Assembly: GCA_020637435.1 (NCBI GenBank)
Contig: JACJVW010000001.1
Span: 699,009 to 763,008 of the forward strand
Direction: 5' to 3'
DNA from: Candidatus Woesearchaeota archaeon
GTDB lineage: Archaea > Nanobdellota > Nanobdellia > Woesearchaeales > JACJVW01
Length of the DNA stretch: 64,000 nt
The notes beneath the pieces are model-generated. The model had not been told where the DNA came from. It ran no database searches and worked only from the letters and a program-made list of their open reading frames with translations. Shown here in pieces: positions 6,371 through 36,522 of the stretch (positions within the stretch are counted from its first letter, which is position 1; every line of letters begins with the position of its first letter). The translations under genes were made by a program, and so were the position numbers.

Positions 6371-6371
6371 G

Positions 6372-6869
6372 ATGAAAGCGCAGATAAAGATGGGAGAGAC
6401 GGTCGCCATTATGATAGTCTTCTTTCTCCTCGTCGCATTCGGTCTTGGATTCTACGTGCAGGTGCAGGAGCACTACTTCGAGAAAGAGCAGGCAAAGATT
6501 CTGCAGCTTAAGGGCTTGCAGATCTCGCAGAAAGCCTCCTATCTTCCGGAACTGCAGTGCAGCGTGCAAAATATCCAGTACGATAATTGTTTTGACATAG
6601 ACAAAGCGGAGATTTTTTTCGAAGTGGTCAACGGCAGTGATGAGAAGTACGCGCACTACTACGATATTTTCGGGTCAAGCACCTTGTATCTGCAGGAAGT
6701 CTATCCCAACAGTGGAAAGACCTATATGATATACGATGCATCGCTTCCTAATGAAAGGGGAACAAACACCCTCACGAGTGTCGTTCCCGTCTCATTGTTC
6801 GACGGAAAACAGAATGTCTTCTCCATAGGTGTTCTGGTCATCAACCACACAGACAGGGATCTAGGATGA
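6372..6869 (+). CDS. Class III signal peptide protein, pilin-like
   Basis: N-terminus MKA|QIKMGETVAIMIVFFLLVAFGLGFYV. 1-nt spacer to the upstream gene. Confidence 0.7.
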   Translation: MKAQIKMGETVAIMIVFFLLVAFGLGFYVQVQEHYFEKEQAKILQLKGLQISQKASYLPELQCSVQNIQYDNCFDIDKAEIFFEVVNGSDEKYAHYYDIFGSSTLYLQEVYPNSGKTYMIYDASLPNERGTNTLTSVVPVSLFDGKQNVFSIGVLVINHTDRDLG

Positions 6870-7351
6870 GAAAAGCACAGATGGAAGTATTAGGCCTCAT
6901 GGTCGTGGTATTGCTGCTCAGTATAGCTGTACTCTTCGTCGTCACATTTGTATTTCTTGATGAAACTCGTGATCCATCTCAGCAGCACCAGGAATCACAG
7001 CTCTCGTCCAATCTGCTAAACGCAATGCTGCAGACAACAGCGATGGATTGTGGAAAGCAGCAGCTTAAATCTCTCTTCCGTGATTGTGCGTTGACCAACG
7101 AGATAAGGTGCGATAACGGAAAGCGTTCCTGCCAGTATCTAAATGAGACCGTATTCAATATTCTTGAGGGCATCCTCAATACCCCGCAGTACAGAAGGGC
7201 GTACTTCTTTAACGCGACCGGCATCCCGCAGACAAATATAGAAGGAGGTATCCAGTTCGGTAGGCCATGCCAGGGAGATCTTGATGCCAAACAATTCCCT
7301 ATCCAGGCGCAGCGAAAGACCGTCGAGATCCAGATAGAGCTCTGCGGGTAA
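6866..7351 (+). CDS. Class III signal peptide protein, pilin-like
   Basis: N-terminus MRKA|QMEVLGLMVVVLLLSIAVLFVV. ATGA overlap with the upstream gene. Confidence 0.7.
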   Translation: MRKAQMEVLGLMVVVLLLSIAVLFVVTFVFLDETRDPSQQHQESQLSSNLLNAMLQTTAMDCGKQQLKSLFRDCALTNEIRCDNGKRSCQYLNETVFNILEGILNTPQYRRAYFFNATGIPQTNIEGGIQFGRPCQGDLDAKQFPIQAQRKTVEIQIELCG

Positions 7352-7402: not shown

Positions 7403-9124
7403 ATGCACCCAATATTTACCTTCCTGGGGGGTTCAACCCTCTATGGGCTCTACGATACTTTTGTTAATGACCGTGGCGGACTGGTACACCTCATAGAGCG
7501 CACAGAACGGGCTGACTTGATGGACAAAGTAGAGGCGGCGCGCGATATAGTTTACAATGGTGTTCAGCATCTTGACCATGCGCAGGAGATAGCAGATGTT
7601 GTGGGTTTCCTCAGCCAGTCCGGTCCTTACTTTATGCCCTACCTCCTTGCAGGCCTTGCCTCAATAGGAGCAGTAACAGGAGTGCGGCAGACGCAAAATC
7701 TTCTCAGGCAATACTCTTCATTCCAGGAGAACCGCCATCGAAGAGAGCACCAGGAGTCCTTGCCGACAGGTATGCCTGATAACCCAAGAACAGAACTGGT
7801 AAACTTGGTCGACCATCATCTGAAGAGTATTCGAAGCTGGAATCTCATTGAGTACGAAGGCACCAAAGAAGTGACCAAATCAAGATATCTTAGGGCGATT
7901 CGAAAAAAAGATGACGACCAGGCCCTTGCGTATGCAACCTTGCTATCCCGCAAGGAGTATTTCATCACTACAGCTGGGCGTTTGATGGGGGAAGATTTCA
8001 CTGCCTTTCTTCCGCGACTGGAACGCTTTGACCAGATTGACCCGGATGATATCAACATACATGGCTTTGACGAAAAAGTGGATAACCTTGCCTATGTTGC
8101 GGCGCTTGCTGAACGCTACATAGCTATCGCGCCTGAACAGGCAGAGCAAGTGCTCCCTATATATGATGATGCGCTAAAGCGACTCTATACACTTACCAGA
8201 TTGTTTACCACAAAAGACATGGGACAATTGGAGCTTCAGGGCGAAACCAACAACGCTGTCTACCGTCTTAAACAGCCCTTTGCCAGAAATCTGCTCCTTT
8301 TCAAGGAAGGCGAGTCCCTCGAACAACACCGGAAGGAAATGGATGCAACAGAACAAATAAGGTCATTGTTAAAAGGGCATACGCAGTGGAAAGTACCTCG
8401 CCCGATTGCCGTGTTCGAACCCGACCACCGTAATCTCTCAAAGCCGGTTTACGTCATGTCAGTGGCCCAGGGCGAAACACTCGACCACATGATGAATGAC
8501 AACCCGGCAACAGAAGCAATCAACAGGGTGCTACCCTTCCTGACCTATCTTGCATCACATCTTCCTCCTGCCTCAAACAAAGAACGACTTGAAGACAAAC
8601 TGTACGCACGGCTTGACAACAAAGACTTCATTCCTGATGATCAAAAGCGAGAACAACTGCTGCAGCACGCTGCAATATGGTCCCCCTCTCTACTGGAAGA
8701 TATCAATCAGTTCCCCTACATCGCCAACCTTGATGCGCAGCCAGAGAACTGGATAATTGGTGACCAGATAACCCGTATAGACCTGGAGCCAAAACCGGCA
8801 ACAAGCGCAATCTTCGATATCTGCAAACTCTTTGAATATCACCACTCAGGCCCATTTGAGGACAAGCTCCCCTACCTTCGCCAACACATGCATGCACTCG
8901 GACTAGAATTGCCTGATGAAGATCTATGTAGGGGCTATCTAAGCGCTACCGTGTACCTGGCAATATCAGTAGGTTCTTACCGCTCCTCCCCAAAAGTCAA
9001 AGAGAAGTGGCCGATGAGAAAGATTCTTTTACAGAATGCGTTGCGTGCAGCAGATGCTCTTGCATCTACACAAGCGTATGACCTCTTGCGCAAAGACCTA
9101 AGAGACATCTATGATGGATTATGA
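7403..9124 (+). CDS. Protein-kinase-like fold phosphotransferase (APH/ChoK/Kdo-kinase-like) with N-terminal hydrophobic region
   Basis: Kinase-like order of motifs: LLFKEG (Lys), EMDATEQI (Glu), hinge YVMSVAQGETL, catalytic-loop-like NLDAQPENWII, then ITRIDLEP (DFG-equivalent IDxE). Confidence 0.5.
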   Translation: MHPIFTFLGGSTLYGLYDTFVNDRGGLVHLIERTERADLMDKVEAARDIVYNGVQHLDHAQEIADVVGFLSQSGPYFMPYLLAGLASIGAVTGVRQTQNLLRQYSSFQENRHRREHQESLPTGMPDNPRTELVNLVDHHLKSIRSWNLIEYEGTKEVTKSRYLRAIRKKDDDQALAYATLLSRKEYFITTAGRLMGEDFTAFLPRLERFDQIDPDDINIHGFDEKVDNLAYVAALAERYIAIAPEQAEQVLPIYDDALKRLYTLTRLFTTKDMGQLELQGETNNAVYRLKQPFARNLLLFKEGESLEQHRKEMDATEQIRSLLKGHTQWKVPRPIAVFEPDHRNLSKPVYVMSVAQGETLDHMMNDNPATEAINRVLPFLTYLASHLPPASNKERLEDKLYARLDNKDFIPDDQKREQLLQHAAIWSPSLLEDINQFPYIANLDAQPENWIIGDQITRIDLEPKPATSAIFDICKLFEYHHSGPFEDKLPYLRQHMHALGLELPDEDLCRGYLSATVYLAISVGSYRSSPKVKEKWPMRKILLQNALRAADALASTQAYDLLRKDLRDIYDGL

Positions 9125-9978
9125 TGCAGCCCTGTCGTGGAACCAGCAAGGCTAAGAATATTCGTGATGATGCCGTGCACAAATAAATCCGCTCTGGATA
9201 TTTTTCCTTTCTCAACATCCGCCAAAAGTTCTTTTCCTCTGGCAACAAATTCAGAGAGTCGCTCAAAGCTATAGTTGTAATATAGGGAATAATACTGTTC
9301 AAGATACGCATGGACAGAAGAAAGAGCCTCTACACGTCCCGGTTGGCGGCTGAGTCGCTTGAGGTCATCACAGATATTCTCAAGAACCCATAGGATCGTG
9401 TAGAGGTAGTTCTTTCTGATAGGGGTCATCATGCTCTTGTTAAGGATCCGATGACAATAATTGGTGATCTTGTTGTTCGTTTCTTCATAGCTCTCGATGG
9501 TTGTGGGGTCAGCTCCATCAAGGAGGTCCTTAGCCATGCCGATAACGATGAGAAAATTTCTCCGTATCAATCCTCGAAGGTCAGGGTCTTCAGCAAGTAT
9601 CAAATCCTTGATGAGCAAAGTCGTCTTGCTCTGTTCAAGAATCTCATACCCCATAAGCATAGTGTTGATGGTCATTCGGATAGACTCCAGTTGTTCAGGG
9701 GAACTATACCGTACCGCAAGCTCATCATACCCATCCTTATGCAACGTAGCGATAATGCTTCGTGCCACATCGGCGGAAGTATTGCTGACATCCACAGCAA
9801 GCCGGGTCCGTTGCTGGCTTACCTCTTTGGCAGTGATGCACAGCCCTTGCGAAGAAGGCGTGACCTCCACCTCATCCCCCTTACTGATCCCACTTTCCTT
9901 GGCCCAAACTGCAGGCAGGCTTACTAACAGGGTTTTCCCGGCAAGCTGAATTACTTTCCTTCTCACAACTCGCTTCAC
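9109..9978 (-). CDS. AbrB/SpoVT-domain plus PhoU-like regulator (archaeal phosphate uptake regulator type)
   Basis: N-terminus RRKVIQLAGKTLLVSLPAVWAKESGISKGDEVEV is typical of a looped-hinge AbrB-type domain. The remainder is helical and PhoU-like. Confidence 0.65.
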   Translation of the reverse strand: MKRVVRRKVIQLAGKTLLVSLPAVWAKESGISKGDEVEVTPSSQGLCITAKEVSQQRTRLAVDVSNTSADVARSIIATLHKDGYDELAVRYSSPEQLESIRMTINTMLMGYEILEQSKTTLLIKDLILAEDPDLRGLIRRNFLIVIGMAKDLLDGADPTTIESYEETNNKITNYCHRILNKSMMTPIRKNYLYTILWVLENICDDLKRLSRQPGRVEALSSVHAYLEQYYSLYYNYSFERLSEFVARGKELLADVEKGKISRADLFVHGIITNILSLAGSTTGLHHNPS

Positions 9979-10099
9979 ATCTTAGAGGTATATAAAATTA
10001 TTCAATATATATGACTATATATCATAATATATATTATATTCCATAAATATATACCTTTCTTTGGGCTCTTTACGTATAACACGATTTGAGGTGATTTAC

Positions 10100-10588
10100 A
10101 TGAAGAAGGATCTGTTGATTGTTGCTCATCTGCGAAAGAACGGAAGAGAGACACTGACGAACATGAGTAAGAAGACCAATATTCCTATATCGACCATATA
10201 CGAACGACTGAAGCACAACGACGTCATAACTAGGCATACCGCATTGCTGGATTTTTCCAAGCTGGGCTACAAGGCGAGAGCCAATGTCCTCATCAAGCTT
10301 TCAGCGTCGGCAAGAGACGGATTTATAGAGGCGATGAACTGCTCCAGCATGGTGAACACTGTGTACCGGGTGAACAATGGATTTGATTTTATGGTCGAGG
10401 TGCTCGGTAGGGACCATATCGCACTTGAACAGTACGTAGCTGATTTGGAGACGCGCTTCCTACCTGAAAAGCTTCAGGTGCACTACATCCTGGGCACTCT
10501 TGCCCATGAACGGTTTCTCAGTGACCCCTCAATCATATACGCTGACGCGACAGTGCAAGAACGCAAAAATCATGCAGTTATGGGTTAA
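10100..10588 (+). CDS. Lrp/AsnC-family transcriptional regulator
   Basis: MKKDLLIVAHLRKNGRETLTNMSKKTNIPISTIYERLKH (HTH) plus a C-terminal RAM-like domain. GAGGTGAT SD sits 4 nt before the ATG at 10100. The track ORF starts earlier, at 10061. Confidence 0.75.
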   Translation: MKKDLLIVAHLRKNGRETLTNMSKKTNIPISTIYERLKHNDVITRHTALLDFSKLGYKARANVLIKLSASARDGFIEAMNCSSMVNTVYRVNNGFDFMVEVLGRDHIALEQYVADLETRFLPEKLQVHYILGTLAHERFLSDPSIIYADATVQERKNHAVMG

Positions 10589-10637: not shown

Positions 10638-10907
10638 GTGAATACTAAAGCACAAGGCTTATCGATGAATGTCATCATCGTCGCTGCACTGGCACTATTG
10701 GTTCTCGTCATTGTCTCTGTAATTTTCATGTCAAGATCAAGTACCTTTGTCATTGAGTCCAGAGGTTGTGAGAGTAGCGGCGGCACATGCGTAGACGATC
10801 CAAGCGAATGTCCTGCAGGGACTAAAGCGACAGGTATATCATCCCTGACGTGCACTGACAGCAGTGGCGAGCCGAATGGCAGGATCTGTTGCATAGCTGG
10901 AGAATAA
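10638..10907 (+). CDS. Mini pilin-like protein with C-terminal 6-Cys knob
   Basis: GTG start after GAGGTGAT. MNTKA|QGLSMNVIIVAALALLVLVIVSVIF. Cys pattern C-x6-C-x6-C-x13-C-x11-CC. Confidence 0.7.
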   Translation: MNTKAQGLSMNVIIVAALALLVLVIVSVIFMSRSSTFVIESRGCESSGGTCVDDPSECPAGTKATGISSLTCTDSSGEPNGRICCIAGE

Positions 10908-10909
10908 AC

Positions 10910-11164
10910 ATGATTTTTAATCGAAAAGCTCAGGGATTATCTATGAACACCATTATCATAGCTGCCCTGGCTATTCTTGTTCTTATTGTTCTTGCAGTCA
11001 TCTTCGGCAACAAAGGTCGTGACTTCGCCAACAACACGAGAAGCTGCGAAAATCTTGGCGGCGAGTGCAAATCAGAATGCGATGCTGACCTTGAGCGCAA
11101 GCACATCGGCAAGACCAACTGCGGCGACGTCAGTTATTGCTGCATCCGCATCTACGACCAATAA
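10910..11164 (+). CDS. Mini pilin-like protein with C-terminal 6-Cys knob (paralog of 10638)
   Basis: ATG at 10910 gives MIFNRKA|QGLSMNTIIIAALAILVLIVLAVIF. Cys pattern C-x6-C-x3-C-x13-C-x5-CC. Shares the CE(S/N)xGGxC motif with its neighbour. Confidence 0.7.
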   Translation: MIFNRKAQGLSMNTIIIAALAILVLIVLAVIFGNKGRDFANNTRSCENLGGECKSECDADLERKHIGKTNCGDVSYCCIRIYDQ

Positions 11165-11288
11165 CACACAGCAATCTAATCTTTCTTTTTCATACTTAAG
11201 AGAGTACTCAATGTAACTCCTATTGCCCACATACAAAACCACAGTATCTTGGACAATCTTTATATAGCCGTCTCCCTGTAAACACCGT

Positions 11289-11414
11289 ATGGCAGACGAG
11301 GACACAGGCGAATTTAGCCATCTGGTCAAGTTCATCATCTTGGCCGTCATGATAATAATCATACTGGTGATTTTCGGCACCAAATTCATGTCCTGGGTCC
11401 AGTCGTCATTCTAA
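11289..11414 (+). CDS. 41-aa single-TM mini-ORF (candidate, below ORF-track cutoff)
   Basis: MADEDTGEFSHLVKFIILAVMIIIILVIFGTKFMSWVQSSF. Stop codon is 1 nt before the next start. Same strand as the whole locus. Confidence 0.35.
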   Translation: MADEDTGEFSHLVKFIILAVMIIIILVIFGTKFMSWVQSSF

Positions 11415-11415
11415 G

Positions 11416-12207
11416 ATGAAAGCGCAGGTATTTGGTTCAACAGTCAATATGATACTTCTCCTTGCGGCAGCGGTAGTCCTCATTGGATTCGTCGGCATGT
11501 TTGTCGCAAACACCGTAAAAGGAGAGTCCATCGAAGCCTGCAGGCTAAGCTTCCTTGCCGCATCCTATGATTTCACAGGCGAAGTCCTGGATTTCGATTG
11601 CCCGATAAGGGAAGTCAGCATAAGCAAGCGCGACATCTACAAAGGTGAAGACCTTAAAGAAAATACGCTCAACAGGATCCTCGCTGAAGAGCTTCGCATC
11701 TGCAACTACATGACCGCGGAAGCAAAACACTATCCCTTTGATTCAGAATTGTTCTCGCAAAACACAGCTTGCATCATCTGTGCCGACATTTCTTTTGACG
11801 AATCAATAAGCGAAGATGGACGGTACACCATCTATTCCCACGATGTAAACGAATATCTCAAATCCACCATTCTTCCCAAAGGCACGCAGACCTATGCTGA
11901 ATATCTCGAAGCCAACAGGGACATAGATTTTGACAAAGGCATAACATACATAGAGTCCATCAAAAAAGACACCGTACGCGGAACTCGCTTTGTCCCTAAA
12001 TACACGAACCTCCCCTACGTCTCCACGGTAGATAGCAATCAACGATACTTTGTGGTCTACCAATACGTTGTACCCTCAGACACAGAGTCGGCTTGGGATA
12101 CGGTAGTAGGTTGGGTTACTGACCGCTCAACCGGCCCAAACTCAGCCATCTTCCTCATCGATGAAGAGAACTTACAGTACATGAGTTGTGATATGATTGC
12201 GAACTAA
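11416..12207 (+). CDS. Class III signal peptide protein, pilin-like (263 aa)
   Basis: MKA|QVFGSTVNMILLLAAAVVLIGFVGMFV. Conserved Cys/ILAEEL pattern shared with the next gene. Confidence 0.7.
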   Translation: MKAQVFGSTVNMILLLAAAVVLIGFVGMFVANTVKGESIEACRLSFLAASYDFTGEVLDFDCPIREVSISKRDIYKGEDLKENTLNRILAEELRICNYMTAEAKHYPFDSELFSQNTACIICADISFDESISEDGRYTIYSHDVNEYLKSTILPKGTQTYAEYLEANRDIDFDKGITYIESIKKDTVRGTRFVPKYTNLPYVSTVDSNQRYFVVYQYVVPSDTESAWDTVVGWVTDRSTGPNSAIFLIDEENLQYMSCDMIAN

Positions 12208-13060
12208 AGCCCAGGCCATGGAGAAGATTGTATACGCCACCGTGGCGCTCATGGCAGTCACCATGCTCTCCTACTACATCTACGGCACCATGATTAGTCT
12301 AAGCGAGCGCCATGACGATGAAATATGCAAAGAATCAGTATTCACCAACTACCTTTTGAGTCAAAAAGGCATTGAATCCGACGAAATCCTCTGTCCTACA
12401 AAATACACCACTATCAAAGGCAACGAAAAGAAAGCCCTGGCAGAAGAACTGGAACGCTGTTGGTGGATGCATCACGAAGGCAAGCTCGAACTTTTCTCTG
12501 AAGAAAAAATATACTGCTCCGTCTGCTCCGTTGTTCGCTTTGAAGGCGACGGTACGCTTGAGGGATTCGGAGACTACATGATGACCGCAGAGCGCAAAGA
12601 CGGTTCTACCTACCTCTCTTACCTGGCATCAGTCGAGACAGAACGCGCAGCAGACCTCATCCAGGATGACAACGCATTCCAACAGCTCGATATGGCCTCA
12701 AATTCGATTGACCGTTCCAAACCCCATTCTATAATTTTCGTCTATGCCAAGGGTGAGAACTGGGTCGGTGAGCTCTTTGATACGATAGGCAGAACGACCA
12801 CAACACTGACCGTGGGCACAGTTAGCTCGCTTGGTAGTGGTGCCGTGTTCTTCCTCGTGACCCCTGCAGGAGCCGTATGGGGTGTAAGCGCGGTTGCTGC
12901 TGCACTTTCTGTTGGCACAATTGCAGGTTTTGCTGCTTTATTTGCAGAAGAGGACGCGCACACATCATTTATTATACTAAAAGAACATCAACAAGATGAA
13001 TTAAGAGACTTAGGCTGCCAGGTATTCCCGGCAGTCCAGAAGGATATCCAAAATGAATAG
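12197..13060 (+). CDS. Class III signal peptide protein, pilin-like, with two C-terminal TM helices (paralog of 11416)
   Basis: A TTG start gives (M)RTKA|QAMEKIVYATVALMAVTML. The in-frame KAQ motif favours TTG over the ATG at 12218. Contains ALAEELERCWWM and YCSVCSVVRFEG. Confidence 0.6.
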   Translation: MRTKAQAMEKIVYATVALMAVTMLSYYIYGTMISLSERHDDEICKESVFTNYLLSQKGIESDEILCPTKYTTIKGNEKKALAEELERCWWMHHEGKLELFSEEKIYCSVCSVVRFEGDGTLEGFGDYMMTAERKDGSTYLSYLASVETERAADLIQDDNAFQQLDMASNSIDRSKPHSIIFVYAKGENWVGELFDTIGRTTTTLTVGTVSSLGSGAVFFLVTPAGAVWGVSAVAAALSVGTIAGFAALFAEEDAHTSFIILKEHQQDELRDLGCQVFPAVQKDIQNE

Positions 13061-13181
13061 CAACGCGATGGTACTCTCCAAACTGCTAGCAGCAGGAATT
13101 GCTTTGCTCCTGCTCGTCGTCCTGCTTATCATTCTGAGTGACGCAGGCTCATCATTGTTTCAGGTGGAGTTCCCATGGTAA
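13053..13181 (+). CDS. 42-aa single-TM mini-ORF (candidate)
   Basis: MNSNAMVLSKLLAAGIALLLLVVLLIILSDAGSSLFQVEFPW. Overlaps the upstream stop by 8 nt and the downstream start by 7 nt. Confidence 0.35.
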   Translation: MNSNAMVLSKLLAAGIALLLLVVLLIILSDAGSSLFQVEFPW

Positions 13182-13681
13182 AAGGTGAGATGACCACTTC
13201 CACTCTGGTGGGAGCCGCAATAGTCGTGATTCTCTTCCTCGTCCTGACCATCTTCCCCGGTAAAATTCAGGATGCCTGGACAGGCATGAAAAGCATCTTC
13301 GGAGAAAATGACCCTGATGTACTCTATGACAAAGGCGTTGACAGTTATCTCGATGGCGAATACACCGCTGCAAAAAAGAGTCTAACCTCCTTCATCAACA
13401 CATTTCCCGGCCATCCAAACGTGACAGCTGCAAAAATACACTTAGCTATGGTCCACGCAGCCCAAGGCAACAAGAAATCCTCCTCCGATCTGATTGAAGA
13501 AATACTTAAGACTGACAACCTTCCAGGAGACGTCGCATCACCCCTTTACTCCCAAGAACGAGAAATCTCATCATCATCAACCTCTTACGACTGGGGTTGC
13601 ATCAACTATGGTTCAGCCGGCTGCATATACGGCATAAAGGCGAACACCGACCCCTGCATATGTCGCATGGGCATTGAATAA
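13175..13681 (+). CDS. Pilin-like N-terminus fused to TPR/YbgF-like repeat region
   Basis: MVKG|EMTTSTLVGAAIVVILFLVLTIF. Then YDKGVDSYLDGEYTAAKKSLTSFINTFPGHPNVTAAKIHLAMVHAAQG, which is TPR-like. Confidence 0.6.
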   Translation: MVKGEMTTSTLVGAAIVVILFLVLTIFPGKIQDAWTGMKSIFGENDPDVLYDKGVDSYLDGEYTAAKKSLTSFINTFPGHPNVTAAKIHLAMVHAAQGNKKSSSDLIEEILKTDNLPGDVASPLYSQEREISSSSTSYDWGCINYGSAGCIYGIKANTDPCICRMGIE

Positions 13682-13713
13682 CCCCAGTAAATTTTATTAA
13701 CTCACATCTCAAA

Positions 13714-13983
13714 ATGATACTTATGAACAAAAAAGCAATGACGCAGGAAGCGGTCATCAAAATGGCACTTGGTGTACTCGTATTGCTGGTGCTCATTTTC
13801 CTGTTCACCGACCAGGCTCGAAATTTCGGAGGCATTGTAGGCAATACTTGCGATTGCACTAACCACGAAAAGGCTCTGGAAAACGCTTGCGAAGAAGGAG
13901 AAACACTAACCTACGGCAAACTCAAAGAAGATTGTGAAGGTACAACCAAGGGGGCGAGGGTAAGATGCTGCGTCAAAAAATAG
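13714..13983 (+). CDS. Mini pilin-like protein with C-terminal 6-Cys knob (third member)
   Basis: MILMNKKA|MTQEAVIKMALGVLVLLVLIFLF. Cys pattern C-x-C-x10-C-x14-C-x10-CC. Confidence 0.65.
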   Translation: MILMNKKAMTQEAVIKMALGVLVLLVLIFLFTDQARNFGGIVGNTCDCTNHEKALENACEEGETLTYGKLKEDCEGTTKGARVRCCVKK

Positions 13984-14402
13984 GCATGACTACAAGCACA
14001 CTTATCTCCATGGCTCTTGGTATAGTGCTCTTCATCGTCCTTCTCTTCATGATACAAAACGGTTCGCTCATGGCGTTCTGGGACAGTTCGACGGGTATCG
14101 TCGATTCAGCACAGGTCCAGGCCTGTATGAAAGACCAGGAGCTCAATAACAAGAATCAGGAAGACTGTGACAACGACGGCATCTACGATGTCTGCGACTT
14201 CTGTCTTGGTGCCGACAACCGTCTCGACGGGGATAATGATGGTACTCCAGACCATTGTGATGAAGACCCCGGCAATTCCAAAAAGAAGAAATGCAATGGC
14301 GAACTTATAGAATTGGGAAACTACAAATATTGCGAAGCTCATGAAATCTCAGGTTGCGAAGAGAAAGCAGACTACTTCAGAGAATTAGCCGGAGAGAAGT
14401 AA
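13965..14402 (+). CDS. Pilin-like N-terminus fused to TSP3-like Ca-binding loops
   Basis: MLRQKIG|MTTSTLISMALGIVLFIVLLFMI shares MTTSTL with 13175. Also DCDNDGIYDVCDFCLGADNRLDGDNDGTPDHCDEDP. Alternative start at the ATG at 13986. Confidence 0.6.
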   Translation: MLRQKIGMTTSTLISMALGIVLFIVLLFMIQNGSLMAFWDSSTGIVDSAQVQACMKDQELNNKNQEDCDNDGIYDVCDFCLGADNRLDGDNDGTPDHCDEDPGNSKKKKCNGELIELGNYKYCEAHEISGCEEKADYFRELAGEK

Positions 14403-14403
14403 A

Positions 14404-15444
14404 ATGAACAAGCGGGGCGAATCTTCAACAATGGTCCCCGAACAGGTAGTCAATGCGGCTATCGCAGCTGTACTCGTCCTTGTGGTTCTTTCGGTCATAA
14501 TCGCCTTCGTCTGGAACCTCTTTGATGTCCGAGACACTTCTGAAAAAAACTTTGACCGACTCATAGAAAAAATAAATCAACTTTCTGCCGCAAATGGGGA
14601 ATACACCGTCTATCCTTCCGTACCTTTCACAATCCAGGAAGATTATTCCGTCATCGCCTTCAATCCCGGACAGCCTACCGTGGAGTTCAACGCACCATGG
14701 TACAAGATTTGGACCAGCACTGATGAAGTGGAACGTCCAGAAGAGTGCAGGCTACGGGTCTCAGCATGCATCTGCCTCTACAAAGACACAGATGTAGTCA
14801 AATGTCACACGCTCTCCCAGACCACCTATTTCGGAGCAACAACCCTTGATGTTGGGCTTATCACTACAGTAGCCCTACCTTTCAGCAGTGATGATTCTAT
14901 GATGCTTGCCCTTGAGCAGGATGGGTATTCAAGCAGGCTTCAGGATGAGTATGCGCAAATCTTCTTTCCCTCAGCTGTAGATTGGGGATTAACGAAGAAA
15001 GATGTGGATTGGAACGCACAGCTGCTCTATATGGACATGGTTAATTCTGGCGAGCACAAATACATCATGATAACACCTGCCAAAAACACCACTGAGCTGA
15101 AGAATAAACGAAAAGAGACTATGGATTACGAAAAGGCCTACCGTTTAGAACAGGAAATATATGATATTGCGGCAGGGGCGCAAAATGAGGAGAACATGCT
15201 CCTTCTCTACTCAAAATGCTATGAACTCTTCGGCGTCCACCCTGAAGTGTACCCTACAGAAATCTGTGACAATCTGGTCTGCCAGGACCTGCAAAGTGAT
15301 GAGAAAGGGAACTGTGAGATTGAGAATCACTGCATCTGTCTTCCCTTTTATGGAGAAGAGTACTGCGATAATAGCGCAAACAGATTCTGCTACGACACTG
15401 GCTGCTCAGACATTGAGATATCAGGCGCAGACTGCGGATATTAA
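14404..15444 (+). CDS. Pilin-like N-terminus protein with Cys-rich C-terminal tail (346 aa)
   Basis: MNKRG|ESSTMVPEQVVNAAIAAVLVLVVLSVIIAF. C-terminal CDNLVCQDL...CEIENHCICLPFYGEEYCDNSANRFCYDTGC. Confidence 0.65.
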   Translation: MNKRGESSTMVPEQVVNAAIAAVLVLVVLSVIIAFVWNLFDVRDTSEKNFDRLIEKINQLSAANGEYTVYPSVPFTIQEDYSVIAFNPGQPTVEFNAPWYKIWTSTDEVERPEECRLRVSACICLYKDTDVVKCHTLSQTTYFGATTLDVGLITTVALPFSSDDSMMLALEQDGYSSRLQDEYAQIFFPSAVDWGLTKKDVDWNAQLLYMDMVNSGEHKYIMITPAKNTTELKNKRKETMDYEKAYRLEQEIYDIAAGAQNEENMLLLYSKCYELFGVHPEVYPTEICDNLVCQDLQSDEKGNCEIENHCICLPFYGEEYCDNSANRFCYDTGCSDIEISGADCGY

Positions 15445-15547
15445 AATGAGGCCAACTTCTGGAAACTTAGACCTTAAGTTCCTGAATCTTCCGGACATCT
15501 TAACCTACATAATCCTAAAAGCGGGTTTTTCCTTCATTACCCCCTGA

Positions 15548-15558
15548 ATATTTATAAA
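15548..15558 (+). promoter_or_regulatory. Internal TATA-like box for the 15582 transcription unit
   Basis: atatttataaa centred about 28 nt before the ATG at 15582. Lies in the only sizeable spacer (137 nt) of the locus. A T-run (gggttttt) sits just upstream. Confidence 0.4.
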
Positions 15559-15581
15559 CTCAAACACCCTAAAAACCCGTA

Positions 15582-16553
15582 ATGCTGCGCAGTAAAAAGG
15601 GTGACTTGCAGCAGGAGATAATCCTGCATGCGATAGACTTCGTCATATTGGTAGCTTTCTTGCTTATCTGCCTGCAGATTGTTGATGGAATCGAAGAGAA
15701 TAGGGTCTTCGACAAGAATTTTCTCGCCAAAGACCTTGCCCTTACTGCAAGCGTGGTTGCGGCCGCGCCCGAAGATATCAGCACCATCTACGACCCGGGT
15801 GCTTTCGACTCACGGCTTTCCTATTTCGACTACGTCTTTGAAGACCACAAGATGACCGTCATCACCAAGCAGGGTGTCAAAGTCTACGCTCCGTACTCCT
15901 ATCCTGAGCAAGCGGAAGCGAAGATACCTAATGTGGTCAAACCGGAATCCCTCTTTTTCGAAAAGATCGGCAACGCCTTCTATATCTCACTCACACCGCA
16001 CGACCTGCCAGAGCGAAAAGACCTCTGCGATGGAGTGCAAAAAGTGCAAAAGGCGCCTCTCCATATTACTTCAGGCACCGGCCTCACCGACCTAAGCGCC
16101 TATCCTGATGCAGCGGAAGTGGAATTCCTGGCGCTGGATGTTCAGGACACGCTCATACTCGCGGGACTTCAGATACAGCAGTATCTTGATGAAGGAACGC
16201 TCTTCATAAGCTTGCAACCGGGAATAAGCAATGATGAAATACAACCAATTACAATTCACTTCACAGCAAACACGCGCGGTATCGCATGCGGTATCAGGAA
16301 TATGTTCCAAAATGATCTTGCATTGCAGTCATGGTTCTCCAACCAATTAATGCGGGTAACTATGCATGAAATCCCTTCAAACATTGATGAGGCAGATATT
16401 CGAGCAACAGAAGCAAAAGGCGTAGTCGTCATTGAGCTGGGCAATGTCGCCGCATATGATAATCTATTTTCAACTACAACCAAAGACAATACACAACCGT
16501 ACAGAAAAACGGTTCAGGACATAGCAGATGGTATCAAGGAAGGTATCGAATAA
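15582..16553 (+). CDS. Pilin-like N-terminus protein (323 aa)
   Basis: MLRSKKG|DLQQEIILHAIDFVILVAFLLICLQIV. Confidence 0.6.
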   Translation: MLRSKKGDLQQEIILHAIDFVILVAFLLICLQIVDGIEENRVFDKNFLAKDLALTASVVAAAPEDISTIYDPGAFDSRLSYFDYVFEDHKMTVITKQGVKVYAPYSYPEQAEAKIPNVVKPESLFFEKIGNAFYISLTPHDLPERKDLCDGVQKVQKAPLHITSGTGLTDLSAYPDAAEVEFLALDVQDTLILAGLQIQQYLDEGTLFISLQPGISNDEIQPITIHFTANTRGIACGIRNMFQNDLALQSWFSNQLMRVTMHEIPSNIDEADIRATEAKGVVVIELGNVAAYDNLFSTTTKDNTQPYRKTVQDIADGIKEGIE

Positions 16554-17067
16554 AGGTATATCGACCCTAAGCATGGTCGGATACTTCTGGAAAATCTCTC
16601 TAATAACGGTAGTTTTCTTTGCGTTCTACTTCCTTGTGAAATCTATGGTAGTATCAGACTTTGACACCAGCACAGTGGAAGCAGAACTCTTCTTTTACCA
16701 GACAGTCTATGCAAAAAAGGGCATATCCTACTACGACAGTGTTATCGACAAAGTCTACCCCGGCAAGATTGACCTGGCAAGGGTCAAGGACAAATCGACC
16801 ATTGAAGCAGAGCTTCTACAGACCTTTGACTATGGTGGTGCGGAACCTCGGTTAGCTGCAAAATACATATTGGAAGACGCTTCGGGAAAAGAGCTTGCCA
16901 CCTGGTACTACGACGAAGACATGTATGATAATCTTATTGCCGTGGCATTTGGCACTGGCGCGGGAGCTGCAATCGAAGTCACGCACTCCTTATATGTTAT
17001 AATTATTGATGAGGGAAAAAAACGTTCAGGGGTGCTCAAAGCCTCCATCGTTAAGCAAAATTCATGA
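16528..17067 (+). CDS. Pilin-like N-terminus protein (179 aa; start uncertain)
   Basis: ..SNKG|ISTLSMVGYFWKISLITVVFFAFYFLV. Alternative ATG at 16573. Confidence 0.55.
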   Translation: MVSRKVSNKGISTLSMVGYFWKISLITVVFFAFYFLVKSMVVSDFDTSTVEAELFFYQTVYAKKGISYYDSVIDKVYPGKIDLARVKDKSTIEAELLQTFDYGGAEPRLAAKYILEDASGKELATWYYDEDMYDNLIAVAFGTGAGAAIEVTHSLYVIIIDEGKKRSGVLKASIVKQNS

Positions 17068-17588
17068 AACGGGCAAATGTAACAGGGGCATTGGTGCTTA
17101 TCTTTAGTGTCATCGCTCTCATTCTCATGTTCCTTGTCTTCTACATCATTGCGGGCCAGGAAGACCAGAAAGTCTTCTCAGACAAAAATGAAGCTGAGTC
17201 TCTTGACGCGGACATCATGCTGCGAAACATCCTGGATACGCCCTCCACTAAAGGCACTGTACGTGACCTCATTGAGTACGACCTTGTGCAGATGACCTGG
17301 AAGGACACCTTTAGAGACAGCAGCTATGAAGATGAACTGGAGACCATCATGGAAAAGCTCTTTCCTCTGATGAGACACCAAATAAAAGTAGCAGATGAAA
17401 CATGTGAGCGAAGAAGTATATTTCGGGTCTATGTTACGCAGGGAAGCCCTGATACTTATACCGATGATGAGGGCTGGACAACCGCATGCCCCTCTCTTGG
17501 AAGGTTGCAGGAAGTAAGAAAAGAAATCACACTCTCAACAGGGCGCACCGTAATGGTAGGTCTTGAATTCATGTACAGGGAAATATGA
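17064..17588 (+). CDS. Pilin-like N-terminus protein (174 aa)
   Basis: MKRA|NVTGALVLIFSVIALILMFLVFYII. ATGA overlap with the upstream gene. Confidence 0.6.
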   Translation: MKRANVTGALVLIFSVIALILMFLVFYIIAGQEDQKVFSDKNEAESLDADIMLRNILDTPSTKGTVRDLIEYDLVQMTWKDTFRDSSYEDELETIMEKLFPLMRHQIKVADETCERRSIFRVYVTQGSPDTYTDDEGWTTACPSLGRLQEVRKEITLSTGRTVMVGLEFMYREI

Positions 17589-18694
17589 GAAAAAAAGGAA
17601 TGGTGTTTTACGTTGGCATTGTCCTCGTTGCTCTAGTCCTACTCACGACAACTATGATATCTCTCAAAGGACTTCAGGATGAACTGCCTGACTATCCGAT
17701 AGGTGAACAGCAGTTCTCCATCCTTAATGCATATGAATCCATCTCAAAAGACGGGGAAGACCTTGCATGGATGGCAAAAAAAGCCGCAGACCGTGCTATG
17801 CTTGACCTTGCAAAGAACGGGGGGCACAATGTCATCAAAGAATCAGAAAGCGCAAGTGACAACCCCTGCGGAACATCCGGCAATTTTGAGCTGTGGAACC
17901 TTGGCACGACCGAGTGCTTCCCTGATCCGCAAAGCGCGTTTGAGTCCTACTTCAACGACCACATGCTCGACATGCAGCTGCGTTGGGGTCAGGAGCCTGT
18001 CTCCTACTCACTCACTCTCTCTGATGAAGTCATTTATGGCTCTGCCGGAAGAAAAGTCCAGTACACAAAACCGGTGCGGGCAATTCCCGTGCCGATAACC
18101 GGCACCTCACAGATAGTCTGTCCAGCCATGCAGCTCAGCGCAGTAACCTATGCCACAGCAAATGCCATCAATGGCGATGTGCATGGGTGCACACAGGCAA
18201 AAAGAGATGCAAAGGAATGTACCTTCCTCCTTCCTTCCGAGTTTGCATCACTCTGTGCTGTTGAAGACCCCCGAGTGGAAATTGCCAGACCAGGGGGCAA
18301 TGCCATGGTCCCAGAACTTGCGCAGTTCCTTGTGGATATTGCTGCAAAATGGCAGGCGATAGAATGCGCAGGCGTTGATAACTGTCAGGCAAGACTCCAT
18401 GTCTCAAGCATAGGCACAGGGCGTCACAGCGCTGGAAGTATGCACAATCTGGGCAGGGCAATAGATGTCAGCCGCTGTATCGACAAAGACGGCAAGACCC
18501 ACTATGCATCAAGCTACAATACCTATGACACAAGCACCGTATACGGCCGCTGCTACAAGATGGTCTATGACGAAGCACGGGATCGAGGCTTCAACTTCAT
18601 CGGCCAGTGGAGCTGCCTGGGCTTCACAGCCGAGACCTGCAGCGAGCAAAAACTCTACCACTCCGACCATATGCATATAGATTACAGAACATGA
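17585..18694 (+). CDS. Pilin-like N-terminus fused to LAS-family (peptidase M15/VanY-like) zinc peptidase domain
   Basis: MRKKG|MVFYVGIVLVALVLLTTTMI. C-terminal GRHSAGSMHNLGRAIDVS matches SxHxxGxAxD. Followed by HSDHMHIDY (second His ligand motif). Confidence 0.7.
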   Translation: MRKKGMVFYVGIVLVALVLLTTTMISLKGLQDELPDYPIGEQQFSILNAYESISKDGEDLAWMAKKAADRAMLDLAKNGGHNVIKESESASDNPCGTSGNFELWNLGTTECFPDPQSAFESYFNDHMLDMQLRWGQEPVSYSLTLSDEVIYGSAGRKVQYTKPVRAIPVPITGTSQIVCPAMQLSAVTYATANAINGDVHGCTQAKRDAKECTFLLPSEFASLCAVEDPRVEIARPGGNAMVPELAQFLVDIAAKWQAIECAGVDNCQARLHVSSIGTGRHSAGSMHNLGRAIDVSRCIDKDGKTHYASSYNTYDTSTVYGRCYKMVYDEARDRGFNFIGQWSCLGFTAETCSEQKLYHSDHMHIDYRT

Positions 18695-20271
18695 GACTCG
18701 AACTGACACTTGTAGGACTAATAGCAATGATTGTCCTAGTCAGAATATTCATTCCTGTAGACACCGTAACTGGTATGGCATCTTCTGATGAAGGAGAGAT
18801 TGACGAAGGGATCAAGCAAGTGCTCATGGAATACTTCATCGACTACGATTCACTTCAGGCACAGCTCGAGCAACGACAGGAACAGATTGACCTTGTTCAG
18901 CAGGTAGGTGCAAGGCAGGGTCTGCCGGATACCTTCTATCCTGCACATCTTTTCATTATCTCAAACGGGCTCTACGAACAGACAACCTGTTCACAGGTCG
19001 CGGAACTCTTCTGGATTGAAGAGTGCCAGGGCCTGCCAAAAGATGAATGTGAGGCCGAAATGCATTGCACAGCCTGCGAAGAAGGTGGATGCGGATGCAG
19101 CCTTTTCAAGAATTATCCGCTAACCTATCATGCAGTATCCTGCAATTTTGGTATGGGGCAAGTCTCGTTTAAAGACGCGTACAATCTTGGCTATAGCGGA
19201 CCTGTTGAAGGTTTGGAAGACACCGAGACAAACCTTCGCATGTATTTCCTCACTATGAAACGGCTTAACGAAGATGCAAGAACCCAGACCATCATTGACC
19301 GCATCATTGCTCATGACATAGGTCTTGAACGCCTAACGCAAATAAAAGAGACCTATGGAGAAACCTTCGAGGAATACTACATCGCACTGCCTTTTCCAAA
19401 AAGATACGCGATTCTTGCGGGAAAAGTGCTGACCATCGCAAGCGTTCTGCAAGAACCCACCAACGATGACCTTGAAGAACACATCGAGAATGCGCTCTCA
19501 CGCTTGAGCATACCTCCTGTTGAGCAAATCTCCTCAGTAAGGATGAGTTCTCTGCCACGCTTCCGCATAGATGAGGACTACGCGCTAAGCCAAATGTCCC
19601 AGATGAAAGAAGACGCAAAAAATCTCATCAGCACCTGCAAAGGCGAAGAGCGCGTAGAGCAGTGCGTGCAGGACAATCTCCCAAAAGACTGGCAGACCGG
19701 AAGCACCTGCGCAACCGTTTTTGACAAAGCGATAGCGTACATCGACCAATGCGCATCCGCCATCAATCCACCCTGCAATTGTTTCTATGACTCTATCAAA
19801 CAGGACGAAACCATTACATTCACAAACACTGACGGCGGCATTCGTGTCGCTGTTGGAAGAGAAGCTTCCACCCTCGCGGGAGTACGGCTTGAGGAACCCT
19901 CCATTGTTTTCAACGAAGATACCATGGACTGGCTAAGTCTCCCCATCATCGGTGATGACCAGAAATTCATTGGCAATCTGGGAAGCGGAAAGATTGGCTT
20001 TGTTGACAAAGGAACCTCCGGGTGTAAATATCCTGATACAAAAATAGTCAGATTCTGTGCAGACACAGGACAAACCATCACTCATGTAGCAGGTAGCGAG
20101 ATACGCGAAGAGCAACTCATCTATCGTTTTGCGCTTGATTTTAGGGATGTTCAGGAGGGGCCTTACACCTTTGGTGAGACCGTTCCCACTGATGGTCATG
20201 CATTAGTCATAACCAAAATTGTTACACAGCAGGACCAACTCAATGCAGTAACAGGGGTGGCTGGACAATGA
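18691..20271 (+). CDS. N-terminally anchored Cys-rich extracellular protein (526 aa from ATG 18691)
   Basis: The ATG at 18691 overlaps the upstream stop (ATGA). MRLELTLVGLIAMIVLVRIFIPV. Cys cluster ECQGLPKDECEAEMHCTACEEGGCGC. No family assigned. Confidence 0.6.
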   Translation: MRLELTLVGLIAMIVLVRIFIPVDTVTGMASSDEGEIDEGIKQVLMEYFIDYDSLQAQLEQRQEQIDLVQQVGARQGLPDTFYPAHLFIISNGLYEQTTCSQVAELFWIEECQGLPKDECEAEMHCTACEEGGCGCSLFKNYPLTYHAVSCNFGMGQVSFKDAYNLGYSGPVEGLEDTETNLRMYFLTMKRLNEDARTQTIIDRIIAHDIGLERLTQIKETYGETFEEYYIALPFPKRYAILAGKVLTIASVLQEPTNDDLEEHIENALSRLSIPPVEQISSVRMSSLPRFRIDEDYALSQMSQMKEDAKNLISTCKGEERVEQCVQDNLPKDWQTGSTCATVFDKAIAYIDQCASAINPPCNCFYDSIKQDETITFTNTDGGIRVAVGREASTLAGVRLEEPSIVFNEDTMDWLSLPIIGDDQKFIGNLGSGKIGFVDKGTSGCKYPDTKIVRFCADTGQTITHVAGSEIREEQLIYRFALDFRDVQEGPYTFGETVPTDGHALVITKIVTQQDQLNAVTGVAGQ

Positions 20272-21176
20272 AACTGCTCACAACCCTCCTAGCCGTTCTA
20301 CTTATCCTGCCCTCAGTAGCAGCTATCTGTGAAGACATGCAGTACGCGCAGTATCCTCTTTCGCCTGAGCTCTACAGGTTCTATCTCTACGACCATCGGG
20401 CAATTGACGTAACACTTCCAGAATTTCAATCGGAGAATCCAACAATCACTCTGGGACAGCAAATCTGTCTGCCAAAAAAGATTTCAAACAAACTTTCCTT
20501 AAGCGAAGGTGAGACCATCATCAACCTTTGGCAGTTCTATGGTGCGCCCCGCGGTTACTCTCTAAGCGAGACCGCTCTAAAAATTCTAGACAAGCAAGAC
20601 CCAACAACCGCTGCACTCTACCGTTCATCTCCCGGGCGCTTTGACCCTTACTCCTTTTCAGTTCAGCATCCGCTAAATACCGGCACTCTCGATTGGGAAG
20701 GAGCACCACTACCGCCACAACAAAACGAAAACGTTTTGCAGGTCATCGATACCAAAATTTTACCCAGTACGCTAATCGATGAACTCATCCTTGATGACCT
20801 TCAAGGCATCCAAAGGGAATACTCGGTAAGCGAAGAATTCATCGAGCTCATCACCAATCTTGCTGTACAAAGGACAAACAGTGGTGTCGACATTCGTGTA
20901 ATTGTCCTTGAGACGTCCTTCCTTGATGAAAGCTCCATCTCCTACAATGCCATTGCAGCGTCCGCATTCGAGAGAAAATTCAAGGACCGTGAACGTAAGC
21001 AGGCAGTAGTTGTCCTTGAGCGCGACAGAGCAATTTCTGTAGTCTATAATCCTGACCTCTTCGATGAAGAAATCATCAACAGGGAGGTTGCCTACGCAAC
21101 AGACCTTCTAGAACTCGGCGATAGCAGTCTCAACATATTAAAGAGCGTAACACAGGGGATAGTCGATGCGTCGTGA
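20268..21176 (+). CDS. Secreted protein with classical signal peptide
   Basis: MKLLTTLLAVLLILPSVAAICED. ATGA overlap with the upstream gene. Confidence 0.6.
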   Translation: MKLLTTLLAVLLILPSVAAICEDMQYAQYPLSPELYRFYLYDHRAIDVTLPEFQSENPTITLGQQICLPKKISNKLSLSEGETIINLWQFYGAPRGYSLSETALKILDKQDPTTAALYRSSPGRFDPYSFSVQHPLNTGTLDWEGAPLPPQQNENVLQVIDTKILPSTLIDELILDDLQGIQREYSVSEEFIELITNLAVQRTNSGVDIRVIVLETSFLDESSISYNAIAASAFERKFKDRERKQAVVVLERDRAISVVYNPDLFDEEIINREVAYATDLLELGDSSLNILKSVTQGIVDAS

Positions 21177-36511: not shown

Positions 36512-36522
36512 TAAGAAAAAAG
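36512..36522 (-). terminator. Oligo-T tract after 5S rRNA
   Basis: The minus strand reads CACTTTTTTCTTAC immediately 3' of helix I. Confidence 0.4.

Follow-up and report, generated by a model that had tools for sequence, protein, structure and literature searches.

Functional domains grafted onto type IV pilin N-termini are well established in bacteria, where modular pilins, exemplified by PilB and PilC of Streptococcus sanguinis, comprise more than 1,200 proteins with 264 domain architectures (PMC8179133), and class III (prepilin-type) signal peptides are established on archaeal binding proteins as well (bioRxiv 10.64898/2026.04.22.720090). Here we describe a cluster of about 20 genes, most of them encoding proteins with pilin-like N-termini, that is located in a 64,000-nucleotide stretch of DNA (hereafter, the window) from a Candidatus Woesearchaeota archaeon (GenBank assembly GCA_020637435.1, contig JACJVW010000001.1, positions 699,009 to 763,008 of the forward strand). 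The order of these genes is conserved in many DPANN archaea, and one of them encodes a putative peptidoglycan-cleaving enzyme mounted on a stem module that carries a variety of other murein hydrolases in related loci.

The closest parallels to this arrangement come from several systems. As in the bacterial modular pilins, a short pilin-type N-terminal module is joined to a grafted domain, different domains occur on the same type of stem, and the subunits are expected to be of low abundance or located at the tip. The bacterial proteins, however, belong to the family IPR012902, have G^F...E5 leaders (the caret marks the putative processing site), are processed by PilD and are encoded next to assembly genes, whereas those described here match no curated signature, have a putative leader of the archaeal K/R-G/A/S^ type and lack linked assembly genes. 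The bindosome is similar in that functional archaeal proteins with pilin-type N-termini are encoded apart from the ATPase and platform genes, but its cargo consists of solute-binding proteins, which are encoded beside ABC transporters and serve nutrient uptake, in contrast to the murein hydrolase, calcium-binding and Cys-rich heads of a dedicated cluster of ~20 genes that includes a giant adhesin. The complexes of minor pilins with the tip protein PilY1 in bacterial type IV pili and the GspH-K pseudopilins of type II secretion resemble our cluster in the combination of four co-transcribed small pilin-like genes with a very large adhesin-like protein and in the multitude of distinct, low-abundance subunits. 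The differences are that sequence homology does not extend beyond a match of the N-terminus of one small protein (U4) to the minor pilin PilV, which falls below the cut-off (E = 0.0077), and that the adhesin here is a C-terminally anchored protein of 10,405 amino acids (aa) with Ig-like and TSP3 domains. The Epd pili of Methanococcus maripaludis (system 1, reported in some DPANN) share the short major pilin, the several minor pilins and the KG^Q or KA^Q leaders, but belong to arCOG and Pfam families that are already known and are served by an EppA peptidase of their own, none of which was detected here, where the pilin-like genes are also far more numerous.

The other relevant body of work deals with murein hydrolases that are encoded by small-genome Woesearchaeota and Pacearchaeota and are thought to act on bacteria (PMC8204110, PMC9723730, PMC12352652). 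The lineages, the enzyme classes and the inference of a bacterial wall substrate are the same as here (Module 98 and fam00969, PMC8204110; GH23, PMC9723730; PMC12352652), but these papers treat the hydrolases as single genes, and the passages retrieved describe neither this gene cluster nor a stem common to different hydrolases; the terms pili, pilus and pilin are absent from the main texts of all three papers. Module 98 is presented in PMC8204110 as a group of 51 families, mostly hypothetical, that are restricted to the Woesearchaeota and Pacearchaeota; it may overlap with the present cluster. A recognized Sec or Tat signal is given for only 32% of the archaeal peptidoglycan hydrolases in PMC12352652, and compared with these, the stem module described below offers an alternative route of export or anchoring.

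Organization of the gene cluster

The initial annotation of the window, made from the DNA sequence, delineated a locus between positions 10638 and 21176 with 14 open reading frames (ORFs) longer than 80 aa and two ORFs of about 41 aa with transmembrane (TM) segments, all on the forward strand; all 16 are present at these coordinates. The boundaries of the locus were drawn too narrowly. A motif scan of the whole window revealed four additional genes whose products carry KA^Q or RG^Q at the N-terminus (U1 to U4, 4764-7351), directly 3' of an ORF that runs off the start of the window (4-4767), and these four genes together with the end of the giant gene are also part of the system. The full cluster comprises ~20 genes in two modules, of which the locus is the downstream one: module A consists of a giant C-terminally anchored Ig/TSP3 surface protein followed by U1 to U4, and module B extends from O1 to O15. 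The two-module organization follows from a single contig in which the giant gene and U1-U4 stand alone, without module B. In the window, the modules are split by three inserted genes, one of which is Lrp-like. The genes are as follows.

4..4767, + strand: giant surface protein, C-terminal 1,588 aa of 10,405 aa; Ig-like domains, TSP3 repeats, one C-terminal TM helix, charged, Pro-rich tail
4764..5297, + strand: U1, pilin-like, 177 aa, MSRG^QLANQAF...; homologues at the same position in 11 loci
5294..6370, + strand: U2, pilin-like, 358 aa, MSKA^QIQVQFNWIFVLIVGG...; the most strongly conserved protein of module A
6372..6869, + strand: U3, pilin-like, 165 aa, MKA^QIKMGETVAIM...; recognized by motif and homologues
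6866..7351, + strand: U4, pilin-like, 161 aa, MRKA^QMEVLGLMVVV...; recognized by motif and homologues
7403..10588, mixed strands: three-gene, lineage-specific insertion between the modules; in relatives, U4 is followed directly by small pilin genes
10638..10907, + strand: O1, small pilin-like, MNTKA^QGLSMNVIIVAALALLVLV..., variable head with 6 Cys, candidate major subunit
10910..11164, + strand: O2, paralogue of O1 (46% identity)
11289..11414, + strand: m1, 41-aa mini-protein with a single TM segment; mini-ORFs at the same place in relatives have KKG^ motifs
11416..12207, + strand: O4, pilin-like, 263 aa, MKA^QVFGSTVNMILLLAAAVV..., O4/O5 family (in 25-26 loci)
12197..13060, + strand: O5, pilin-like, 287 aa, MRTKA^QAMEKIVYATV...; Gly-rich hydrophobic hairpin near the C-terminus (nt ~12797-12983)
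13053..13181, + strand: m2, 42-aa mini-protein with a single TM segment
13175..13681, + strand: O7, pilin-like with a TPR-like region (Pfam matches below cut-off), poorly conserved
13714..13983 (start at 13714 or 13723), + strand: O8, small pilin-like with 6 Cys, MNKKA^MTQEAV..., distant relative of O2
13965..14402, + strand: O9, pilin-like, two TSP3-type calcium-binding loops DxDxDGxPDxCD; homologues in 9 loci
14404..15444, + strand: O10, pilin-like, Cys-rich tail (14 Cys), weakly conserved
15582..16553, + strand: O11, pilin-like, 323 aa, TATA-like box upstream (~15551); in 42 loci
16528..17067, + strand: O12, pilin-like, 179 aa; in 50 loci
17064..17588, + strand: O13, pilin-like, 174 aa, MKRA^NVTGALVLIF...
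17585..18694, + strand: O14, stem (aa 1-135, nt 17585-17989) and LAS-type zinc peptidase domain (aa ~215-369, nt 18227-18691)
18691..20271, + strand: O15, N-terminally anchored, Cys-rich (16 Cys), 526 aa, the last conserved gene of the cluster
20268..21176, + strand: O16, secreted protein with a Sec-type signal, overlaps both neighbors, not conserved

Adjacent genes mostly overlap or are separated by 1-2 nucleotides (nt). Instead of the one real gap recognized originally (15445-15581), there are two, of 124 nt between O2 and m1 and of 137 nt between O10 and O11, each with a TATA-like box (TTTATATA at ~11259 and TATTTATAA at ~15551, respectively) located about 25-30 nt before the start codon, and an additional gap of 32 nt precedes O8. 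The G+C content is even across the region and matches that of the flanks, and the window has no tRNA genes. Just downstream of the locus lies the archaeal marker gene Endo_dU (identified with Pfam), for which the closest reference genomes are metagenome-assembled genomes of Woesearchaeota, Nanoarchaeota and Pacearchaeota (~50% identity). The adjacency of the cluster to this gene is not conserved because none of the 24 Endo_dU loci in reference genomes, used as synteny anchors, includes the cluster.

On the source contig, the giant gene spans 10,405 codons and ends at position 4767 of the window. Pfam detects TSP3_bac and Big_5 domains in the part of the protein encoded in the window and Big_13 and Glucodextran_B further upstream, and the overall order is Ig-like domains, calcium-binding TSP3 repeats, one TM helix and a long charged tail. 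This tail, of ~300 aa, is rich in Pro, Lys and Glu and is presumably cytoplasmic. Because of the Ig-like and TSP3 domains, the single TM helix and the charged tail, the giant protein is classified from its sequence as a C-terminally anchored, adhesin-like protein rather than a pilin; in five relatives, the large proteins encoded ahead of U1 retain the TSP3-TM-tail architecture.

The same proteins are encoded on the 782-kb NCBI contig of Candidatus Woesearchaeota archaeon, under H6504_ locus tags (H6504_03545 for O14 and H6504_03460 for U2). In the automatic gene calls, O1, O2, O5 and O12 begin at internal Met codons, so that the basic leader and the motif are lost, and m1 is missed, an antisense ORF of 105 aa (11072-11389) being called in its place; the longer versions of the four genes, with GTG, TTG or ATG starts, are backed by comparison with homologues. 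The lack of annotation in this region is due, in part, to these truncated leaders and to the omission of m1.

Conservation of the cluster in DPANN archaea

At least 25 related DPANN contigs contain both halves of the cluster side by side and with the same gene order; where named, the contigs that carry the cluster are labeled Woesearchaeota or simply 'archaeon'. The conserved order consists of one or more large proteins, U1, U2, U3, U4, one to three small O1/O2-like proteins, a mini-ORF, O4, O5, variable genes, O9, O10, O11, O12, an O13-like gene, the gene for the stem-hydrolase protein and O15, after which come housekeeping genes such as those for RPA and RadA. This order is the same in contigs that were found only via the O14 stem and in others found independently via U2, so that the synteny across DPANN, proposed at the outset as a test of the locus, is strongly conserved.

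Scanning metagenome contigs with the stem module yielded 62 loci, with all ORFs of which the window proteins were then compared. The locus search employed an alignment of 8 stem sequences; an alignment of 36 sequences was too diverse, and a homologue search with it yielded nothing at E <= 1e-5. Family counts were made after removal of the hydrophobic helices, which otherwise pull all families together. On this basis, the O14 stem is present in 62 loci, O12 in 50, O11 in 42 and O4/O5 in 25-26, whereas the counts for U1-U4 (11-14 loci) are limited by the reach of the flanks. All 40 homologues of U2 are labeled 'hypothetical' or nameless, and none contains a Pfam domain. No counterparts of O16 or of the Lrp-like gene were found in the relatives.

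The Lrp/AsnC-type regulator reported directly upstream of the locus does exist as an Lrp-like gene (10061-10588, + strand, with Pfam scores just under the cut-offs), but its adjacency to O1 is lineage-specific. The other two inserted genes encode a 573-aa protein without a Pfam match, in which kinase-like motifs (DAQPENW, RIDLE) are discernible by eye (7403-9124, + strand), and an AbrB/MazE-domain protein (9109-9978, - strand).

A run of small co-directional genes for membrane proteins that includes an endolysin might also be taken for an integrated virus or another mobile element, and the co-directional, overlapping and mostly orphan ORFs, the peptidoglycan hydrolase and the three unrelated genes inserted in the middle of the region all fit this description. 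However, the same gene order recurs in many divergent chromosomal contigs, where the cluster is flanked by RPA and RadA, the window contains no integrase, capsid, terminase or tRNA gene, and a murein hydrolase would be useless to an archaeal virus. Given the lack of tRNA and integrase genes and the flank-like nucleotide composition, this explanation was rejected and appears scarcely credible.

A common stem with interchangeable murein hydrolases

The most informative result of the comparison is that the stem of O14 is attached to different enzymatic domains in different archaea. A word-indexed search with O14 returned only the query itself, whereas an exhaustive HMMER search yielded 59 homologues, of which seven or eight are similar over the full length and about 50 share only the first ~130 residues. 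This stem module, with the characteristic KKG, a TM helix, IGExQ, YIDQSAK, NGGF and CG..LW..C.PD, precedes C-terminal regions of 124 to 1062 aa. The heterogeneous cargo on a shared stem that was proposed for the locus as a whole is thus borne out for the O14 family, where a single ~130-aa module is combined with varied C-termini. Among 40 representatives of the stem family, the cargo domains are M23 (10), SLT (5), Peptidase_M15 and CHAP (3 each), Amidase_3, VanY, Peptidase_C39_2 and NlpC/P60 (2 each), and Amidase_2, 3D, phage tail lysozyme and a lysozyme-like domain (1 each). In the 37 loci with a stem gene at the O14 position, VanY (18) and Peptidase_M15 (15) dominate, followed by M15_3 and M15_2 (4 each) and by Amidase_2, M23 and SLT (1 each). 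A few other cluster genes also carry amidase or lysozyme domains. In one relative (locus L043, 8347-10086), an O14-type stem continues into a C-terminal region that shows homology to O15 (aa 236-491), from which it follows that neighboring genes of the cluster have exchanged domains.

The cargo domain of O14 itself was described in the initial annotation as a LAS/M15 peptidase, and this assignment gains support from the zinc motif, the predicted fold and the presence of VanY or M15 domains at the same position in the relatives. The pattern HSxxSxHxxGxAxD...HxxHxH is invariant across 9 homologues (H281, S285, H287, G290, D294, H359, H362 and H364), and its components constitute the LAS signature, SxHxxGxAxD plus HxH, with the H-x(3-6)-D spacing; the candidate zinc ligands are H287 (nt 18443), D294 (18464) and H362/H364 (18668/18674). 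The family profile matches the N-terminal domain of Sonic hedgehog (Hedgehog-N) at the zinc motif (E = 0.0097). An AlphaFold2 (AF2) model built with the 9-sequence alignment has pLDDT values of 80-96 over aa 180-369, whereas the single-sequence model was unusable (pLDDT 48). Structure prediction followed by a Foldseek search, one of the checks suggested originally, retrieved Hedgehog-N first for O14 (E = 3e-4, probability 1.0, target-normalized TM-score 0.52-0.64, rmsd 3.1-3.3 Å), followed by the murein endopeptidase MepA (E = 0.015) and, weakly, the L-Ala-D-Glu peptidase of phage T5. A phmmer comparison of O14 with the sequences in the PDB produced nothing, and because no cut-off was reached against the M15 families of Pfam (Peptidase_M15_4, E = 0.17; Extensin-like_C, E = 0.042), O14 is best regarded, judging from the motif and the model, as a divergent LAS domain and not as a demonstrated member of M15. 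Compared with the LAS peptidases in general (Hedgehog-N, MepA, VanY/M15 and the phage L-Ala-D-Glu peptidase), O14 has the same H-x6-D and H-x-H elements within SxHxxGxAxD and a fold that superposes on Hedgehog-N and MepA, but differs in its C-terminal HxxHxH, where the positionally equivalent VanY-type domains of the relatives have ExxH.

Peptidoglycan is not known from archaea. A single stem with interchangeable glycosidase, amidase and endopeptidase heads in murein-free producers makes bacterial walls the likely substrate, and the domain composition of the cluster indicates that these archaea probably grip and cut the walls of bacteria. The contact or attack function suggested when the locus was first noticed can be inferred from the murein hydrolase cargo, now in a bacteria-directed form.

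Cutting of the wall of the producer itself also has to be considered. Bacterial pilus and secretion gene clusters often carry a wall-cutting enzyme of their own, and the hydrolase described here, which is always the same positional member of its cluster, could analogously remodel a murein-like wall of the archaeon for the passage of the surface structure, like the dedicated lytic transglycosylases that serve pili, secretion systems and flagella in bacteria. However, murein synthesis is not known in Woesearchaeota or Pacearchaeota, the hydrolases of which are read as bacteria-directed in the literature (PMC8204110, PMC9723730, PMC12352652), there are no Mur-type genes in the window, and the free swapping of glycosidases, amidases and endopeptidases fits varied foreign walls better. 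The action of the enzyme on the wall of its producer therefore seems very unlikely.

Pilin-like N-termini and assembly

Twelve of the 16 ORFs of the locus (O1, O2, O4, O5, O7, O8, O9, O10, O11, O12, O13 and O14), the same number as identified initially, start with a basic leader of 3-10 residues that ends in [KR][GA], or KIG in the case of O9, followed by a hydrophobic stretch (best 19-residue Kyte-Doolittle mean of 1.6-3.5). Leaders with G, A or S at position -1 and K or R at position -2 are present in these 12 ORFs, with I at -2 in O9, and in all four upstream ORFs. For an unbiased statistic, the first hydrophobic stretch of each ORF was located and the closest basic residue ahead of it was identified. 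In the syntenic clusters of related contigs, 388 of 411 ORFs (94%) have a hydrophobic N-terminal stretch with K or R ahead of it, compared with 166 of 760 other ORFs (22%; Fisher p ~1e-141), and the last K or R is followed by G, A or S in 74% of the cluster ORFs against 42% in the background (p ~3e-12). In the cluster ORFs, the residue before G/A/S is most often K and the +1 residue is most often Q. The hydrophobic helix directly follows the site in O1, O2, O4, O7, O13, O14 and U1-U4. In the O1/O2 family, which occurs in tandem copies, about 40 N-terminal residues are nearly invariant (KK[AGS]Q[GS]ISINTIIIAAIALAVLVVL, also given as KK[AGS]Q[GS]ISINTIIIAAIALAVLVVLFAIFTGR) and are followed by a variable head with about six Cys; on the evidence of the alignment, this is the pattern expected of a polymerizing major pilin.

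Elsewhere in the window lies a gene (35474-36322, - strand) for a protein of the archaellin family that has a canonical KRG^ leader. This protein, used as a positive control, reaches the Pfam cut-off for Arch_flagellin (E = 1.6e-11, 45.3 bits against a cut-off of 29.5) and aligns with solved archaellins (1.4e-5), although the NCBIfam model arch_flag_Nterm scores 16.6 bits against a cut-off of 20. Given these similarities and the leader, the genome probably encodes at least one canonical class III-type substrate, an indirect indication of class III processing in the organism. The gene stands alone, adjoining a 5S rRNA gene (36521-36636, - strand), and no archaellum motor genes are found near it. 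Comparison of the O1/O2 profile with this archaellin-like protein gave a probability of 6.6%, an uninformative value.

The interpretation that we favor, and regard as reasonably probable, is that the cluster encodes a bacteria-directed contact apparatus, a type IV-assembled fiber or pseudopilus with a murein hydrolase subunit. The proteins of the cluster would be substrates of a class III signal peptidase, and type IV filament machinery encoded elsewhere would assemble them into a short fiber or pseudopilus; assembly genes located apart from pilin genes are common in archaea (PMC4858521). O1 and O2, with the invariant N-terminus and the variable 6-Cys head, would be the main subunits, and the remaining proteins would be low-abundance subunits with calcium-binding (O9), Cys-rich (O8, O10 and O15) or enzymatic (O14) heads. 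On the stem of O14, the last conserved pilin-like subunit, the peptidoglycan hydrolase would be mounted. A bacterium would be bound through the giant adhesin together with the calcium-binding or Cys-rich heads, and the sacculus would be opened locally by the hydrolase at the contact site, the enzyme acting on bacterial walls because the producer has no murein. Cleavage of the leaders, polymerization into a filament, the location of the enzyme within the structure and the bacterial target are predictions of this scheme, which builds on the observed gene content and conserved order, the statistics of the N-termini, the LAS motif and fold and the swapping of domains.

Several observations weigh against it. 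In O10-O12, 8-12 residues separate the K[GAS] motif from the hydrophobic segment, an atypical spacing, and in O12 this interval contains another Lys. No cluster protein reaches the cut-off of the Pfam and NCBIfam pilin or archaellin models (Arch_flagellin, Class_IIIsignal, arch_flag_Nterm), and profiles of U2, U3, O1/O2, O12 and O4/O5 gave nothing significant against PDB sequences. The N-terminus of U3 shows a weak match to the bindosome protein BasB (E = 0.037). In the N-terminal part of the O14 model, the only one made for a cluster protein, helix 3-32 is followed by a loop, helix 41-77 and short strands (pLDDT 40-80), so that the TM helix is separated by a loop from the next helix, albeit at low confidence, instead of forming one alpha-1 helix. 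The absence of an ATPase, platform protein and prepilin peptidase from the window, noted from the start, agrees with a Pfam scan of its ORFs of at least 140 aa; no type IV core genes were found in the flanks of the window (5 kb on the upstream and 8 kb on the downstream side, read on the 127-kb contig assembled from run SRR12358676), nor within ~10 kb of any related cluster, and a Walker-motif scan of all related loci for a secretion ATPase was negative. DPANN genomes are said to miss components of type IV pili (bioRxiv 10.1101/2020.05.14.094862), although a later survey finds some type IV systems in these archaea (bioRxiv 10.64898/2026.04.22.720090).

Most of these points, namely the absence of type IV core genes from the window, its 13 kb of flanks and the vicinity of the related clusters, the lack of matches to curated pilin models, the long motif-helix spacers in several families and the reported lack of pilus components in DPANN, together with the fact that the giant adhesin itself is a C-terminally anchored membrane protein, are accommodated by the principal alternative. 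The proteins would then be uncleaved and signal-anchored (N-in, C-out) and would form a surface complex or envelope layer but no filament, the K/R-G/A/S motif being simply a positive-inside flank; the hydrolase and the adhesin would still serve contact with bacteria, from the membrane surface. Several features are difficult to account for in this way. G/A/S at a fixed position and Q at +1 are enriched, neither of which a simple anchor needs, the leaders are uniformly 3-10 aa long, the invariant 40-residue N-terminus, variable head and tandem paralogues of O1/O2 are typical of polymerizing pilins, and the archaellin-family gene in the window implies that class III processing probably exists. 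Uncleaved anchors are a serious but less probable explanation.

There is a substantial chance that the structure is a distinct, lineage-specific organelle. In its fullest form, this would be a cross-domain contact organelle of Woesearchaeota and Pacearchaeota, built of about 16-20 pilin-like subunits, a giant adhesin and a stem-mounted hydrolase, with which bacterial cells would be attached to and breached, and assembled by highly divergent machinery or without a type IV ATPase; we advance this more elaborate version only tentatively.

Other proteins of the cluster and features of the window

The other heads proposed for the locus fared unevenly. The three '6-Cys knobs' correspond to O1, O2 and O8, with 6 Cys each, and the Cys-rich tail to O10, with 14 Cys. 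The TPR-like region of O7 amounts to a weak similarity below the Pfam thresholds (YfiO, E = 0.0013; TPR_6, E = 0.031), and no homologues of O7 were found in the related loci. The TSP3 loops of O9 have no Pfam match at E < 1, but the DxDxDGxPDxCD loops are conserved throughout the family, with D71, C77, D78 and C80 invariant. As for the end of the locus, the Cys-rich anchored protein O15, with 16 Cys, is conserved, whereas the secreted protein O16 has no counterparts in the relatives, and its membership in the cluster is doubtful. In the mapped relatives, the place of O13 ahead of the hydrolase gene is taken by a gene of comparable size whose product has a KKG^ N-terminus. Matches to fn3 were obtained for several ORFs of the relatives' clusters, including, weakly, the O15 homologue in locus L041.

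The O5 family has a conserved hydrophobic hairpin near the C-terminus that is rich in Gly, Ala and Ser (aa ~200-262 of O5). The family profile shows a weak similarity, possibly a composition effect, to the part of the pore-forming toxins AhlB/SmhB that inserts into the membrane (E = 0.036), which is suggestive given the proposed attack role.

Outside the cluster, the window encodes an oligosaccharyltransferase (STT3/AglB) fused to a C-terminal parvulin-type peptidyl-prolyl isomerase (PPIase) domain (51096-54176, + strand), within a large glycosylation island that starts at about 30 kb of the window and extends past its end. In another protein (28980-29882, - strand), an ArsR-type helix-turn-helix domain (HTH_20) is joined, in an unusual combination, to an S-layer C-terminal domain (S_layer_C, E = 5.8e-5). 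Two large Ig-like surface proteins (45918-48140 and 48190-49563, both on the - strand; FixG_C, NPCBM_assoc, Big_9 and DUF4625 domains) may be components of the envelope or the S-layer.

Implications for the biology of DPANN archaea

In groundwater and sediments, Woesearchaeota and Pacearchaeota belong to the most abundant of the uncultured archaea. Murein hydrolases of these archaea, previously seen only as isolated genes that mostly lack a recognized export signal, are now tied to pilin-like proteins encoded in conserved order and to a giant adhesin. This provides a parts list of about 20 protein families, all so far without annotation, for a putative apparatus directed at bacteria. The cluster may also supply the 'missing' cognate pilins of the nanoarchaeal type IV ATPases that were noted in 2016 (PMC4858521). 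The question of bacterial hosts for DPANN archaea thus becomes directly testable and, should the cluster indeed encode an undescribed organelle, these abundant archaea would parasitize or prey on bacteria and not on other archaea.

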